From: a virus
Reading direction: 5' to 3' (one strand)
IMG/VR virus record: IMGVR_UViG_3300002144_000477
Span: 106,894 to 170,893 of that record
DNA: 64,000 bases
Position numbers and translations under genes: made by a program. The notes below the pieces were generated by a model. The model did no database searches. It saw only the letters and a list, made by a program, of their open reading frames with translations, and was not told where the DNA came from. Of this stretch, positions 28,242-40,785 are shown piece after piece. Numbering within the stretch: position 1 is the first letter of the stretch; the number at the start of each line of letters is the position of its first letter.

Positions 28242-28335
28242 TGCTTCTAATCTTGTTCATTGTTTCTTCGTCCCAAACTTTAGCCTTCATCGCACGTTCA
28301 TGTTGGGCATTCTTATACTCAGGTTCCCCAGGCAT
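28231..28335 (-). CDS. 34-aa small protein (MPGEPEYKNAQHER...)
   Basis: Bridges queE stop and next start, overlapping both. Confidence 0.45.
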   Translation of the reverse strand: MPGEPEYKNAQHERAMKAKVWDEETMNKIRSSGI

Positions 28336-29191
28336 TGCCGAATATGTCCACATGTAGTCGGGGTGTGTACCTCCAACCTCGCTCCATTGCCAAAGCGGCA
28401 ACTCGTTGTGCGTTTTGTTTATATTCGTCGTACCTGCCTCCGAGTGGCATAGTATAGACTGGGCAGTAGACTCCTGCCTTGGTGTACTCTGTAACTGCCT
28501 TTGCAACCTCGTCCACGTCATCCACATGAGCAACCACAAATTTAAGATACAAGTCAGCACCAGGAATGTCGTAATAACTACGAACAATTTCAGGCTTAAT
28601 AGCATCATCCCAAGACTCTCCCGAAACAGAGAGCTTTGGACTGCAACTGAATGTAACGGTAATTTGGTCTTGATTTGCGAGATAATCAGCAAGCTCCGGT
28701 CTAATAACTTGGGTAGCATTTGTTTCAATAGTGACATTTTTTAAATCCTTCATGCGTGGATGGTTGAATAGTTCAACGTAATTACGTTGCCATCCCAGCA
28801 TCGGTTCACCACCAGTGATAATAAAATGAATGTCCTGCCCACTTGGTAATGTCCAGCTACCAGTTGGTGTCAGTGCAAGCAATTGCTCTACTATTTCGTC
28901 AGTTGTGACATCCTGCATAAAGTGCTTAAACTCAGGGTAGATACTTGCATAGGTATCGCACCCGGTATGCACAATTGGCAAATCATTGAACTCTTTATAG
29001 TTATCAATGTTTTGGATAATAATTGCAACTTCTGGATTTGGAGTCTTGCTGTCATATGCCTCAGACTTGTCTCTACCAAATTTTTTGCATCTAAAGTTGC
29101 ATCCGTACATGCGAAGGAATACGCTTGGCACACCTACGTATTTTCCCTCGCCTTGAATGCTATAGAATGCTTCTGAAAAACGCCATTTCAT
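28319..29191 (-). CDS. queE: 7-carboxy-7-deazaguanine synthase (radical SAM)
   Basis: EAFYSIQGEG, FLR.YGCNFRC...GCDT, ITGGEP, IETN, SPKL, RLH. Confidence 0.92.
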   Translation of the reverse strand: MKWRFSEAFYSIQGEGKYVGVPSVFLRMYGCNFRCKKFGRDKSEAYDSKTPNPEVAIIIQNIDNYKEFNDLPIVHTGCDTYASIYPEFKHFMQDVTTDEIVEQLLALTPTGSWTLPSGQDIHFIITGGEPMLGWQRNYVELFNHPRMKDLKNVTIETNATQVIRPELADYLANQDQITVTFSCSPKLSVSGESWDDAIKPEIVRSYYDIPGADLYLKFVVAHVDDVDEVAKAVTEYTKAGVYCPVYTMPLGGRYDEYKQNAQRVAALAMERGWRYTPRLHVDIFGNAWGT

Positions 29192-29195
29192 ATTT

Positions 29196-29762
29196 TTATC
29201 CTTCGTATGTTGCAGAGTTGGCGTCGTGCTCAAACACTTCAACACTGGTTAATTTAACATTAGCACCAACACGATACCTCTGTTCAAACACTCTACCGTC
29301 AGGATGCGTCCACCCACGGCCTTCTTGGTATGCTGTTAAGATTTCCAACATTGTTCTATATGCAAGTTCTGCAAATTTTTCACAGCCAACACCTTCTACA
29401 ATACGCAAATCAATTACGCCACCACGTTCATGTGGGCGAAGTTTACTAATCTCGCCAGTCCCGCTAGGCATCATTGTGCCTAGATTTGCTAGACGTTTAA
29501 ACTCATCTAAAAACGGATCGTCTTGTGCAACAATCGTAGTATGATCAAATTGCCAGTCAAGCCACTCTTTAAATGCTTTTAGTCCACCAAAGTCCATAAC
29601 CCAGTGGCGATCGTCAAGTGTGGGACTTTCAAACACCAGCTTAACACCGATTGAATAACCGTGTAGCGTCGAGCAGTGACTATGACTAGAACGCCATTGC
29701 CTGAATGTACAACTCAGACCTCTGTCGTTGCCATACTTTTTAGTACTATAATATTTTGTCAT
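29196..29762 (-). CDS. queD: 6-carboxy-5,6,7,8-tetrahydropterin synthase
   Basis: HCSTLHGY, WVMDFGGLK, FDHT, GCEKFA, VFEH; directly upstream of queE. Confidence 0.88.
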   Translation of the reverse strand: MTKYYSTKKYGNDRGLSCTFRQWRSSHSHCSTLHGYSIGVKLVFESPTLDDRHWVMDFGGLKAFKEWLDWQFDHTTIVAQDDPFLDEFKRLANLGTMMPSGTGEISKLRPHERGGVIDLRIVEGVGCEKFAELAYRTMLEILTAYQEGRGWTHPDGRVFEQRYRVGANVKLTSVEVFEHDANSATYEG

Positions 29763-29790
29763 TGTTTCGTTTTCCCTATGTATGTTATAG

Positions 29791-29830
29791 GTGGCGGAAT
29801 GTTTTAAGAGGGACGACACTAAGGCCTCTA
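29791..29830 (-). ncRNA. candidate preQ1-I-like riboswitch in queD leader
   Basis: AGAGG-CCUUAGUGUCGUC-CCUCU-UAAAACAUUCCGCC: 5-bp stem, 13-nt loop, A-rich tail complementary to loop. Confidence 0.45.
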
Positions 29831-29834
29831 ATAT

Positions 29835-30416
29835 CTATTCTATAGTATACTGGTATTTAGGCAAGTTGTCAAATACTTTTTTAACTTTTTCGATATCCTC
29901 GTGCATGTGTATACTAAACCAAATCCTTGGATCGGTAATTTTTACTTCATGCTCTTTAGTAATATTAATAATTATCGGAGTATCAGCCTGTGTCTCATAA
30001 GTGTACACTTGGTTACTGTCTGGTTCGTAGACTACGCCTGTCCCGCTGTTATCGTGCATTGGGTAGACAAAACTACATTGCCCGTTTTTAATACTGTCAC
30101 GATGTCGTGGCACGTTACTACTACTCCAGCATATGGTTGCTGGTGTGAACGTTAACTCGGGAAACGTATGATTAAAAAATTTATCAAGCAGTTCAGTTTC
30201 GGGGATGCCACCTAGTACAAAAAAATCAACGCTAGGACCGCTTTTACTAATCCACCCACCGCTGGGTATTTCACAAACTACACTAGCACCACTTTCGTAT
30301 ATTAAGTGATTTAAGTATTTTCCGGTGTGTACAAAATCAGTCGCTACTGTTCTAACCATCGTAGTTAGTGCATCCCAATTGTGTGCAATTTTAAATTCTG
30401 GCTGGAACCCTAACAT
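29835..30416 (-). CDS. putative cupin/2OG-Fe(II) oxygenase-fold protein
   Basis: HRD ... H ... R pattern (PRHRDS, KEHEV, RIWFSI). Confidence 0.5.
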   Translation of the reverse strand: MLGFQPEFKIAHNWDALTTMVRTVATDFVHTGKYLNHLIYESGASVVCEIPSGGWISKSGPSVDFFVLGGIPETELLDKFFNHTFPELTFTPATICWSSSNVPRHRDSIKNGQCSFVYPMHDNSGTGVVYEPDSNQVYTYETQADTPIIINITKEHEVKITDPRIWFSIHMHEDIEKVKKVFDNLPKYQYTIE

Positions 30417-35249: not shown

Positions 35250-35274
35250 AAAAGAAAACCCGCCTAAGCGGGTT
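35250..35274 (-). terminator. rho-independent terminator
   Basis: aacccgc-ttag-gcgggtt-ttctttt; near-identical to 33484-33506. Confidence 0.85.
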
Positions 35275-35294
35275 ATCGTGTGCGTATGGTTGAG

Positions 35295-35594
35295 TTAAAA
35301 TTTAAGTGATTCCATGGTGATAATTTTACTAATCTCTTCACCTAAATCAACATCATCGGTAATAATGTAATTGTCACCTGTGGATCTGTCAGTTCTATTA
35401 TCGTAGCGTCTAGTGCTGACAATAAACCCACCATTGGCCTTGGTCAGTGTAAAACGCATGGGCTCGCCAAAGGTTTCAACATCGTCGCAAGATACTAAAC
35501 TGCCCCTCGACAATTTCGATTGGTAGGCATCTGCATCTGGTTTTTCATTGGGATCACGAACCCAATCGCGTAGTTTTCTTTTAAGCCATTTCAT
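35295..35594 (-). CDS. hypothetical protein
   Basis: ATGA-coupled ORF. Confidence 0.7.
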   Translation of the reverse strand: MKWLKRKLRDWVRDPNEKPDADAYQSKLSRGSLVSCDDVETFGEPMRFTLTKANGGFIVSTRRYDNRTDRSTGDNYIITDDVDLGEEISKIITMESLKF

Positions 35595-35983
35595 GTTTTA
35601 ATCTCCGTGATTAACAACGGGCCATACATAGTTGTTTCGCACTCCTCGAATGACCAGCCTGCTTCCTCGAATGCCGCAAACCCGTCGTTGTCCCACATTT
35701 CATCTACTTCTGCAAGCAATAATTGATCACCGTCTGTATTAAAATCCAGTGAAATGCCATCATCCATTTCTTGGTCTTGGATAGCGTAGTCGTCTAGATC
35801 GAATCCAAACTCATTGGTTGAATTATATTCAACGTCGAACTCTTGATCGTCTTCAACTTCGATGATCGCATGTCCCCGCCGCCAAAGTTGATCTACATAA
35901 AAAATGCGACCGTCAGGGTGTGTCCATGTTTCGACTTGCTTAATACTTTTTTTATCTTTAGGTTCAATTTTGTATAATTTCAT
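35591..35983 (-). CDS. acidic hypothetical protein
   Basis: ATGA-coupled to folE. Confidence 0.7.
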   Translation of the reverse strand: MKLYKIEPKDKKSIKQVETWTHPDGRIFYVDQLWRRGHAIIEVEDDQEFDVEYNSTNEFGFDLDDYAIQDQEMDDGISLDFNTDGDQLLLAEVDEMWDNDGFAAFEEAGWSFEECETTMYGPLLITEIKT

Positions 35984-36666
35984 CGTGGTGCAAACTCTTG
36001 TTGTAGTTTGATGTTGTCAAAGAACTCTTTCTTTGTATTGCCGTCTGTATTAAATGCCCCTTTTAGTACAGTAGTCTGTGTTAACGAACTATGCGCCATA
36101 ATGCCACGATTTTCACAACAACCATGTGTTGCTTGAATGTAGACTGCTACGTTTTCACTGTCGGTTGCCTTCATAATCTCACGAGCAATGTCGTTACAAA
36201 GTTCTTCTTGTAGTGTGCCGCGACGAGCACACCACTGTGCAATACGTGTATACTTCGAAAGGCCGATTAGTTTTTCTGCCGCAATAATGCCAATATAAGC
36301 AACCCCAGTAACGGGTTGGTGATGATGACTACACATACTACGAAGTTCACTGCGAACCACGAGCATGCCTTCGTAACGGTCTGCCGAATCATTTGGAAAT
36401 GCTGTTGCGTCTGGTGCTGGTTCATATCTTCCTGCCATTATTTCGTTAAAGTACATTTTAGCAAGACGTCTTGCAGTGCCTTGACTGTTAGGATCATTGT
36501 AACGATCAATTACTAGTGCATCTAGTACACTGTTAAATGCTAATGTAGCTTCGTCAATAAGTTGTTCTTTATCGCCTTCTTGTAATACTGTACTGATGTT
36601 ATCACCAGCCCAGTGACGAATGCCATATTTTTCTAGTTTTGTTTTAATTTCTTGTGCTTTACTCAT
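35980..36666 (-). CDS. folE: GTP cyclohydrolase I
   Basis: SMCSHH, GLSKYTR, LQE, HGCCENRG. Confidence 0.95.
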   Translation of the reverse strand: MSKAQEIKTKLEKYGIRHWAGDNISTVLQEGDKEQLIDEATLAFNSVLDALVIDRYNDPNSQGTARRLAKMYFNEIMAGRYEPAPDATAFPNDSADRYEGMLVVRSELRSMCSHHHQPVTGVAYIGIIAAEKLIGLSKYTRIAQWCARRGTLQEELCNDIAREIMKATDSENVAVYIQATHGCCENRGIMAHSSLTQTTVLKGAFNTDGNTKKEFFDNIKLQQEFAPR

Positions 36667-36672
36667 TTATAT

Positions 36673-36700
36673 CTCCGATGTTAAGGCAGTGGATTGCCGT
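36673..36700 (-). ncRNA. candidate minimal pseudoknot/riboswitch in folE leader
   Basis: GGCA-AUCCAC-UGCC-UUAACAUC-GGAG; loop UCC is complementary to SD GGA. Confidence 0.4.
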
Positions 36701-36707
36701 ATTGTTT

Positions 36708-36736
36708 ATTATACAATCAACTAAGTCGATTGTCAA
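36708..36736 (-). promoter_or_regulatory. sigma70 consensus promoter TTGACA-N17-TATAAT for folE
   Basis: Perfect consensus. Confidence 0.88.
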
Positions 36737-36752
36737 TTCTATTTAGACAGCA

Positions 36753-39800: not shown

Positions 39801-40247
39801 TTATACTACCGCGTAAACATTTTCGCAACCATTTTCGTTGTCTTCGCTTACACTAATTTTTACAACACGGCCCGGATACTTTGTTGCAATTTTACGATAC
39901 AAATCGTCTGCAATCATTTCGCAGGACTTGTGATTCAAATTAAGCACCGAAGTACCACCGTCGAGCTGTTGATATAGTCTTTCCATCCATCGCTTGAACT
40001 GGATGAATTCGATGTCTCTATCGTTGTGGAACACTTCGATACACACCCGGAAATGAAAGATATGGCGGTGAGGAATACCAAGGAACGAAACGTCGTCCCA
40101 GCCGCCTGTTGCCAGTTTTGGATCACTGTCTGCTCCTGGATACATATGTACACCTTCTTTTTGAAAGGTAACCCAGATCATTTTTGATGCTTTGTTGATT
40201 GATTGATCAATAGCAGTTCGTTCGGAATTAGTTATTGGATGCGTCAT
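39801..40247 (-). CDS. second QueD/PTPS-like T-fold protein
   Basis: HRHIFHFRV, DIEFIQFKR, SCEMIA, VSEDNENG parallel QueD motifs; start corrected. Confidence 0.6.
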   Translation of the reverse strand: MTHPITNSERTAIDQSINKASKMIWVTFQKEGVHMYPGADSDPKLATGGWDDVSFLGIPHRHIFHFRVCIEVFHNDRDIEFIQFKRWMERLYQQLDGGTSVLNLNHKSCEMIADDLYRKIATKYPGRVVKISVSEDNENGCENVYAVV

Positions 40248-40785
40248 TATTTGGTATGCTCGTTGTTCGTGGTTGAAGTTTGGCCATTTTATCTCTGCCG
40301 TAGTCGTGCCAGCTAGTGTACGACTCCTTAGTGCGCAAGTCGTGCAACGTGTGAACCCACACGCCACCATTTACTCCGCCGACACCGACGTCGTCTAGTT
40401 TTAAACAAGCGTTGTAACCTGCTTGTTGAATAGATGGAAGCTCAATACTTAACATCATAATAAAGTTTGGGTGTTTAACTAATGAAGTTTCCATTAGGTC
40501 GTTATATTGACTTAATGGTATGTCTAGTGTACACTGAAATCCTTGATGCAAAAACACCGTAATAGTATTAACCCACTTATTCCATTCCGCGGCACTTAAT
40601 TTCTCCTTAGGGAAACTTTTATTAGCACCAAAATAAAGATGTGTGCAAAACTCCGGTCGAATCTTGCTGATAGTAACAGGATTAATCCATTTTGCAAGAA
40701 ACAGCGTTTGCTTACCTTTTGCAGGAGTGTTTTCGATTTCTCTGCCGATCATGTAGTCGGCATCTTCGCGAGTAATTTTAGTCAA
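40228..40785 (-). CDS. hypothetical phage protein
   Basis: GREIENTPA, HLYFGAN, LKLDD, GVWVH; has own promoter. Confidence 0.7.
   Translation of the reverse strand: MTKITREDADYMIGREIENTPAKGKQTLFLAKWINPVTISKIRPEFCTHLYFGANKSFPKEKLSAAEWNKWVNTITVFLHQGFQCTLDIPLSQYNDLMETSLVKHPNFIMMLSIELPSIQQAGYNACLKLDDVGVGGVNGGVWVHTLHDLRTKESYTSWHDYGRDKMAKLQPRTTSIPNNDASNN

Follow-up and report, generated by a model that had tools for sequence, protein, structure and literature searches.

A covarying H-type pseudoknot in the folE leader of uncultured T4-related phages, predicted to tie up the ribosome-binding site

Introduction

Can a leader of about 30 bases control the gene that follows it, and if so, in response to what? 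The question is raised by the folE gene of an uncultured virus, in which the short stretch between promoter and start codon can be drawn as a hairpin whose loop pairs with the Shine-Dalgarno (SD) sequence. The window, that is, the whole stretch of DNA that was analysed, is the final 64 kb of a 170,893-bp IMG/VR virus record with a completeness of 49% (CheckV). The DNA polymerase of this phage is T4-type (phrog_262 match) and shares ~45% identity with the polymerases of giant phages, namely Sinorhizobium phage Phosso, Agrobacterium phage Atu_ph07 and Vibrio phage 2.275.O (jumbo T4-like). A preliminary description, made from the single sequence, proposed that the leader folds into an H-type pseudoknot that blocks translation and that, with an element in front of queD, the first two enzymes of the pathway may be controlled by tiny RNA switches or by FolE binding its own mRNA. 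The underlying observation is accurate and its structural interpretation is supported by the comparative analysis reported here; the single sequence alone is not above chance.

Results

Promoter and leader of folE

The folE gene lies on the minus strand of the window (35980-36666) and encodes a GTP cyclohydrolase I of 228 aa (Pfam PF01227, 1.1e-39; phrog_2197; NCBIfam FolE). It is preceded on the same strand by a sigma70-type promoter at 36708-36736, with TTGACA at 36736-36731, a 17-nt spacer and TATAAT at 36713-36708. The promoter, which had been called perfect, indeed scores 12/12, and its position predicts a transcription start site (TSS) at about 36700-36702. A 9-nt stretch between TATAAT and the first helix (P1) forms the start of the leader. 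It is followed by the P1 5' strand GGCA (36695-36698), the hairpin loop AUCCAC (36694-36689), the P1 3' strand UGCC (36685-36688), the tail L3, UUAACAUC (36677-36684; NN, AAC, an optional A, and UC), the SD sequence GGAG (36673-36676), the spacer AUAUAA and the folE start codon AUG (36666-36664), all on the minus strand and in the order originally read, namely hairpin, tail, GGAG, AUAUAA and AUG. Specifically, the loop comprises L1, a single A (36694); UCC (36691-36693), an anti-SD sequence that forms the 5' strand of the second helix (P2) and is complementary to GGA at 36676-36674, the P2 3' strand; and L2, AC (36689-36690), whose C lies directly 5' of the P1 3' strand.

The rest of the folE transcription unit (35257-35983, minus strand) contains two overlapping ORFs and then, at its 3' end, a terminator-like hairpin (35274-35257) identified by a terminator scan. 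The ORF of 130 aa (35591-35983) overlaps both of its neighbours, folE and the ORF of 99 aa (35295-35594). The functions of both ORFs are not known, family searches (Pfam, PHROG, NCBIfam) returned no matches for either, and they are not consistently found downstream of folE among relatives. The terminator scan also called a terminator-like hairpin on the plus strand at 36685-36698, which is the same hairpin as that of the folE leader. We take this call as an artefact, because no plus-strand gene ends there and the SD sequence and start codon are specific to the minus strand.

The arrangement of promoter and hairpin is maintained in relatives. A promoter scoring at least 9/12 is present in 158 of 188 related folE leaders, and the end of the −10 box is mostly located 7-12 nt 5' of P1, indicating that transcripts start at or just before the stem. 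In most relatives, the predicted TSS precedes the stem by 0-5 nt and does not fall within the inner stem; for these, a start inside the hairpin, which would have refuted the original proposal, is not predicted. The spacer from GGAG to the start codon is 5-10 nt long in relatives, and about half of the related folE genes use a TTG start codon.

A CTAAATA box (36740-36746, minus strand) shortly precedes the −35 box. Its sequence is similar to the T4 late-promoter TATAAATA, and its function is only inferred. CTAAATA is present no more than 60 nt 5' of the element in 134 of the 188 related leaders, often between the −35 and −10 boxes, so that early and late promoters may overlap at folE.

The element is exclusively linked to folE

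Close relatives of FolE are encoded on more than 596 viral contigs. The search pattern for the element specified just the loop, AAC and UCGGAG, and placed no condition on the stem or the downstream gene. Nearly all matches with a paired stem immediately precede the start codon of a folE gene (ATG or TTG, 5-10 nt past GGAG), including those of FolE proteins only 37-41% identical to the window FolE, and none of the matches without a paired stem is located at folE. Among 215 distinct FolE proteins from uncultured viral contigs, the element is directly 5' of folE in 167 and missing in 48. The element-less lineages have the same promoter followed by a short plain leader, and the tree of the 215 proteins requires at least 15 gains or losses of the element. 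Many members of a second FolE clade, ~40% identical to the window FolE and searched with its own protein, carry the same element. In a few contigs, the element heads an unrelated ORF of 129-132 aa with no known function, and folE comes next.

The element is a single-copy feature of the 171-kb genome. Its covariance-model score is 41 bits (E = 3.5e-11), the next match reaches 11.6 bits, and no second copy was found in the genome by regular expression or covariance model. Likewise, a complete relative, G001 (346,856 bp, with terminal repeats), has one strong covariance-model match of 42.2 bits. A second match of 17.5 bits in G001 was taken as chance, since it is inside a coding sequence and no start codon follows it.

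The search was extended to cellular genomes and cultured phages. When 185,579 bacterial and archaeal genomes were searched, none of the 120 pattern matches listed is located at folE, and the inner 3 bp are paired in 8 of these 120, which is the chance level. The cultured phages of the INPHARED set contain no carrier of the element, and it is absent from Phosso, RHph_I1_18 and Vibrio phage 2.275.O as judged by covariance model and BLAST. Literature searches returned no description of this folE motif. Together, these data establish an exclusive link of the element to folE.

The N-terminal extensions of FolE are highly variable in the family (0 to ~60 extra residues). The pseudoknot element is always 5' of the true folE start codon, regardless of the extension. 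The ORF of 129-132 aa mentioned above (L133:548-937, L141 and L161) ends in the C-terminal sequence F(D/S)SLFEE and has no homologue in the window genome.

Covariation of both helices

Folding of the single sequence is uninformative. The hairpin in the window has a minimum free energy of −5.3 kcal/mol (z = −0.38), and 59 of 200 shuffled sequences fold equally well. The case for a structure therefore cannot rest on folding and is carried by comparative evidence.

P1 is supported by the stem-blind search, in which the inner 3 bp are paired in all 107 distinct folE-linked instances with seven different inner triplets, while the outer pair is mismatched in 14 of the 107. P1 occurs in 20 stem variants, and its two strands (36695-36698 and 36685-36688 in the window) covary at all four positions. 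In an alignment of 59 sequences with both helices marked, 96.9% of the cells of the two helices are paired, compared with 73.7% in shuffled alignments. The covariation score of both helices is 0.533 compared with 0.111 in shuffles, and none of 500 shuffles reaches 0.533. Pairing registers slid along the same alignment are only 26-52% paired. Because the 59-sequence alignment was pre-filtered for the inner stem, the stem-blind set of 107 is the cleaner evidence for P1. A conserved AUCCAC loop on a covarying stem had been named as the pattern to expect among orthologous leaders; it is what they show, with AUCC(A/U)C essentially invariant and covariation at the four stem positions.

P2 is mostly invariant, with UCC paired with GGA. 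Since near-invariance alone says nothing about pairing, the informative evidence comes from natural variants. Loops with ACCC(A/U)C are accompanied by GGGAG in 10 of 11 folE-linked loci, while AUCC loops are accompanied by GGGAG in 0 of 158. The CCC:GGG loci cover three backgrounds, i.e., a CGCA stem, an AGAC/GUCA stem and the second FolE clade. A third pairing, CCU:AGG, is found in L675, L682 and L683 (loop GCCUCC, tail ...CUAGGAG), and also in two variants with an 8-nt loop, L644 and L652. The pairing of loop UCC with the GGA of the SD sequence, as proposed in the preliminary description, is thus matched by the compensatory versions CCC:GGG and CCU:AGG. The loop changed four times independently on the FolE tree; in three of these cases the SD sequence changed with it, and it never changed in the opposite direction. 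With so few independent events, this co-change is not significant (sign test, p = 0.25).

These data give good support to the H-type pseudoknot, and the element and both of its helices are real. Judging from the positions of its strands, the ~30-base folE leader is a pseudoknot that would tie up the ribosome-binding site. Across relatives, the computed stability of P1 ranges from −1.9 to −6.2 kcal/mol at 37 °C, and that of the 3-bp P2 duplex from −0.8 to −2.5 kcal/mol. By this calculation, both helices are marginal and the pseudoknot looks too weak to hold unaided. The computed stability is markedly higher at 15 °C, and many of the source samples are from lakes or seawater.

Invariant unpaired bases and two subtypes

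The element spans 24-25 nt and consists of P1 (3-4 bp), L1 (A), P2 (UCC), L2 ((A/U)C), L3 (NNAAC(A)UC) and the GGA of the SD sequence. Its unpaired bases are nearly fixed in the 59 distinct sequences. L1 is A in 58 and G once; the final C of L2 is invariant (59/59) and the base before it is A or U, once C; and the AAC and UC of L3 are invariant.

The element occurs in two versions. In type A, the loop is closed by an A-U pair and the tail always contains an extra A (42/42); in type B, the closing pair is C-G or, rarely, G-C and the extra A is never present (65/65). This three-site correlation corresponds to columns 7, 14 and 23 of alignment A2. Members of both types are intermixed on the FolE tree, which implies at least 31 switches between them. 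The correlation suggests either a tertiary contact of the tail with the top of P1, possibly a base triple, or recombination between two old leader cassettes; the two explanations cannot be separated.

Comparison with preQ1-I and other leader RNAs

The closest known system is preQ1-I, above all its type III. As in preQ1-I (RF00522), the folE element is an H-type pseudoknot with P2 formed by the loop and a 3' tail overlapping the SD sequence. In preQ1-I, the specificity C is the last base of L2 and is preceded by A (types II and III) or U (type I) (PMC11625349). The folE element has C at this position in all 59 sequences, after A or U (once C). It also shares the association with genes for queuosine or 7-deazaguanine synthesis or transport, since it is located 5' of folE and the locus additionally encodes QueD, QueE and a DpdL-like protein. 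Other hallmarks are absent. The L1 uridines of preQ1-I (UU motif), which read the minor-groove edge of the ligand (PMC10622847), are missing, L1 of the folE element being a single A. The ~4-5 conserved adenines of L3 just before P2, including one that contacts the ligand (PMC10622847, PMC11625349), are also missing; the folE element conserves only AA and an optional A, with U and C before P2. In addition, there is no match to the RF00522 covariance model: Rfam scanning of 91 bases of the folE leader gave no PreQ1 match at E ≤ 10, and the same is true of the larger-loop variants. The Rfam scans, which covered a 12-kb region, the 91 bases, the queD leader and the larger-loop variants, gave no relevant match; their E-values were multiplied by 4227 families, and only the short-range scans are informative. 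Because the L1 uridines, the oligo-A L3 and the RF00522 match are all missing, we do not file the element as a member of preQ1-I.

In type III preQ1-I, the loop is short and rich in pyrimidines, the P1 3' strand is preceded by AC with a specificity C that is 97% conserved, and P2 consists of three Watson-Crick pairs to the SD sequence, C9-G30, C10-G29 and U11-A28; the smallest construct described in the two papers, an engineered 30-mer, still binds preQ1 (52 nM) (PMC10622847, PMC11625349). The folE element resembles type III (E. coli, 8FZA) in that the pseudoknot makes up most of a short leader and L3 crosses P1, and in the small pyrimidine-rich loop, the AC before the P1 3' strand and the three Watson-Crick pairs between loop and SD sequence. 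The CCU:AGG variants (L644, L652 and L675) use the very pairing of type III. However, the loop and P1 of the folE element are shorter (6 nt against ~9, and 3-4 bp against 5), L1 is a single A in place of UU, and the base just 5' of P2 is C where type III has the ligand-contacting A27. Moreover, uncultured phages are the only known carriers of the folE element and folE the only gene with which it is known to be linked, and preQ1 is inferred not to be a product of the phage pathway, which lacks QueC and QueF.

Type II preQ1-I (T. tengcongensis and the B. subtilis queC leader) shares with the element the order of AC, P1 3' strand and UUAACA, an A-containing tail in the P1 groove, and partial capture of the SD sequence. 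The T. tengcongensis aptamer sequence is ...CCCCAGUUAACAAAAC..., i.e., ...AAC-CCCAG-UUAACA... (PMC7641330), which confirms the earlier remark that UUAACA follows P1 in both RNAs. In contrast to the folE element, the T. tengcongensis aptamer has a 10-nt loop, non-canonical P2 pairs mediated by purines and a 12-nt A-rich L3, and it captures only the first two bases of the SD sequence. By analogy, the folE element may work like preQ1-I, its regulatory function being inferred, and may descend from it; from their sequences, the 8-nt-loop CCU:AGG variants look like intermediates.

The known folE-associated RNA is the THF-II riboswitch (folE motif), a larger hairpin from bacteria (PMC6800512). Both are cis-regulatory RNAs 5' of folE, the phage element by inference, yet THF-II is a simple hairpin of ~50-60 nt with internal loops that serves bacterial folate synthesis, while the folE element is a 25-nt pseudoknot. 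The THF-II model of Rfam has no match in the 12-kb region or the 91 bases. The folE element also resembles the gene 32 leader pseudoknot of T4 and the operators of gp43 and RegA, being a structured 5' end of a T4-type phage mRNA where translation initiation would be controlled. Those sites, however, bind protein, whereas here the SD sequence is itself a strand of the pseudoknot, the gene is metabolic and no protein partner is known.

A predicted 7-deazaguanine pathway and a second pseudoknot, in front of queD

The window encodes a QueD-like protein (29196-29762) and a QueE-like protein (28319-29245; phrog_2076, 3e-52). A second protein with a QueD fold (39801-40370, minus strand) carries LGIPHRHIF. 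The motif LxxxHRHxF has been proposed as the signature of DpdL, a 7-carboxy-7-deazaguanine (CDG) decarboxylase of phages that have DpdA, FolE, QueD and QueE and no QueC (bioRxiv 10.1101/2023.04.13.536721), and LGIPHRHIF fits it. Each of the five large relatives tested has a DpdL-like homologue, with identities of 66-71%. The Pfam models of QueC and TGT have no match in the window genome. The complete relative G001 (100% complete) carries the element, QueE, the DpdL-like gene and a 511-aa protein that has no family or PDB relative by sequence, and it has no QueC and no QueF. A convincing QueC is absent from all ten large relatives examined, so that presence of QueC cannot be contrasted with presence of the element. 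We infer that the pathway products are CDG and probably 7-deazaguanine, not preQ0 or preQ1; such products may account for the substitution, in the folE element, of the bases that recognise the 7-aminomethyl side of preQ1. A DpdL-like gene without QueC or QueF predicts a DNA modification of the 7-deazaguanine type.

The element suspected in front of queD also proved real. The leader of the queD-queE operon contains a larger conserved H-type pseudoknot on the minus strand at about 29791-29835 (within 29762-29850). In ~45 distinct related leaders, its 5-bp P1 (AGNGG/CCNCU) covaries at two pairs, and the pairing of loop and tail occurs in compensating versions, GGCAU:AUGCC, GACGC:GCGU(G)UC (ACGC:GCGU) and GGCG:CGCC. 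UC is located 5' of the P1 3' strand and UUAAA after it, and the SD sequence is 20-35 nt downstream. An Rfam scan of this leader gave no match. The queD pseudoknot fits the idea of RNA switches on both early genes of the pathway, for which binding of a ligand or protein and translational regulation are inferred.

Discussion

The structure suggests how folE could be switched off at the level of translation. The folE mRNA would open with a 24-25-nt H-type pseudoknot that has the SD sequence as one strand, and P1 and P2 would each be only marginally stable without ligand. A guanine-like metabolite of the pathway would stack between P1 and P2, paired to the invariant cytosine of L2. The bound metabolite would lock P2, the 30S subunit could then not reach the SD sequence, and synthesis of FolE, which catalyses the first step from GTP to 7-deazaguanines, would drop. 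A translational OFF riboswitch is the most economical reading of a weak SD pseudoknot with invariant unpaired bases and a link to the first enzyme of a pathway. We put its probability at roughly 0.5; ligand binding, ligand identity, regulation and its direction are inferred, and there are no binding or expression data. The presence of FolE, QueD, QueE and a DpdL-like protein in the absence of QueC and QueF makes CDG or 7-deazaguanine the more likely effector than preQ1, again by inference.

Several points speak against a riboswitch. The aptamer would undercut every validated natural one in size, a protein or tertiary contacts could account just as well for the invariant unpaired bases, and 48 of the 215 FolE lineages manage without the element. 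L1 lacks the ligand-reading uridines and L3 the run of adenines of preQ1-I, the PreQ1 model of Rfam is not matched, and few independent events underlie the P2 covariation. The broader claim remains possible but doubtful, namely that the element represents a natural riboswitch class smaller than all others so far, found in no phages but uncultured giant T4-related ones, and that it senses 7-deazaguanine or CDG from a QueC-less FolE-QueD-QueE-DpdL DNA-modification pathway, with the queD pseudoknot as a further part of a metabolite control of the phage's own.

That the hairpin is a functionless accident beside an ordinary promoter and SD sequence would suit the unremarkable single-sequence fold (z = −0.38), but it is refuted by conservation and covariation in relatives, and the cellular pattern matches listed show what chance yields, i.e., stems at the background level (8/120) and no link to folE; we regard it as practically ruled out. 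A protein-bound translational operator, in which FolE or another phage protein reads the loop and tail and blocks the SD sequence, has to be taken more seriously. T4 gp32, gp43 and RegA act as protein repressors on translational operators, the phage is itself related to T4 (polymerase phrog_262, 45% identity), and a small hairpin whose stem covaries, whose loop is invariant and which embeds the SD sequence has the classic anatomy of a phage operator. Confinement to one gene is what an autoregulatory site would show, and the aptamer is extremely small for a metabolite sensor. However, a protein that reads the loop leaves unexplained both the compensation between loop and SD sequence and the link between tail insertion and closing pair, which indicate an RNA-RNA tertiary fold. 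The element is unchanged before FolE proteins that are only 37-41% identical and have very different N-termini, and it also heads the unrelated ORF of 129-132 aa, which argues against FolE co-evolving with its own site. In addition, another pseudoknot, distinct but built along the same lines, is present in the queD leader. That two operons of one pathway each carry their own version of this architecture speaks for metabolite sensing rather than FolE autoregulation, and an operator appears unlikely.

The structure could also act without any ligand, as a constant throttle on folE, as a response to temperature or Mg2+, or as a protection of the mRNA 5' end. Stems at the 5' terminus stabilise mRNAs, and the hairpin lies within a few nucleotides of the predicted TSS. 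Half of the genes have the weak TTG start, fitting deliberately low expression; the rise in computed stability at 15 °C and the many lake and seawater samples would agree with a thermal response; and tertiary contacts alone could fix the unpaired bases. Yet any hairpin masking the SD sequence would serve as a throttle, which leaves unexplained why seven unpaired bases are invariant across FolE proteins down to 40% identity. The match to the specificity-C position of preQ1-I, the restriction to the first enzyme of the pathway and the related pseudoknot on the second operon are likewise unaccounted for. We consider a ligand-independent role rather unlikely, and retain the translational OFF riboswitch as the working interpretation.

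If the folE riboswitch does bind a metabolite, it would push the known size limit of natural aptamers downward, with the preQ1-I fold pared down to a 6-nt loop, a 3-bp P2 and a P1 of 3-4 bp. It would also be a riboswitch variant known so far only in viruses, controlling an anti-restriction DNA-modification pathway, and its ligand, 7-deazaguanine or CDG, may be new to riboswitches. The element is abundant, with more than 600 IMG/VR instances on hundreds of contigs from lakes and oceans, and so bears on the annotation of environmental phage genomes. The RNA is accessible as a synthetic oligonucleotide of ~40 nt, and compensatory mutants are already present in nature.

Vibrio phage 2.275.O offers a culturable system in which a possible riboswitch control of folE is open to study. 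Its folE leader has a sub-threshold match to PreQ1 (RF00522) in the same place before folE, with 12.5 bits compared with a gathering score of 39. In the deposited genome (Vibrio phage 2.275.O._10N.286.54.E11, MG592671.1), this leader (L614:1241-1271) reads UGCGGUAAGUAAUCCCGCAUUAAAAAAACUA, and the folE gene of L614 adjoins genes annotated as a queuosine biosynthesis protein and an amidohydrolase.
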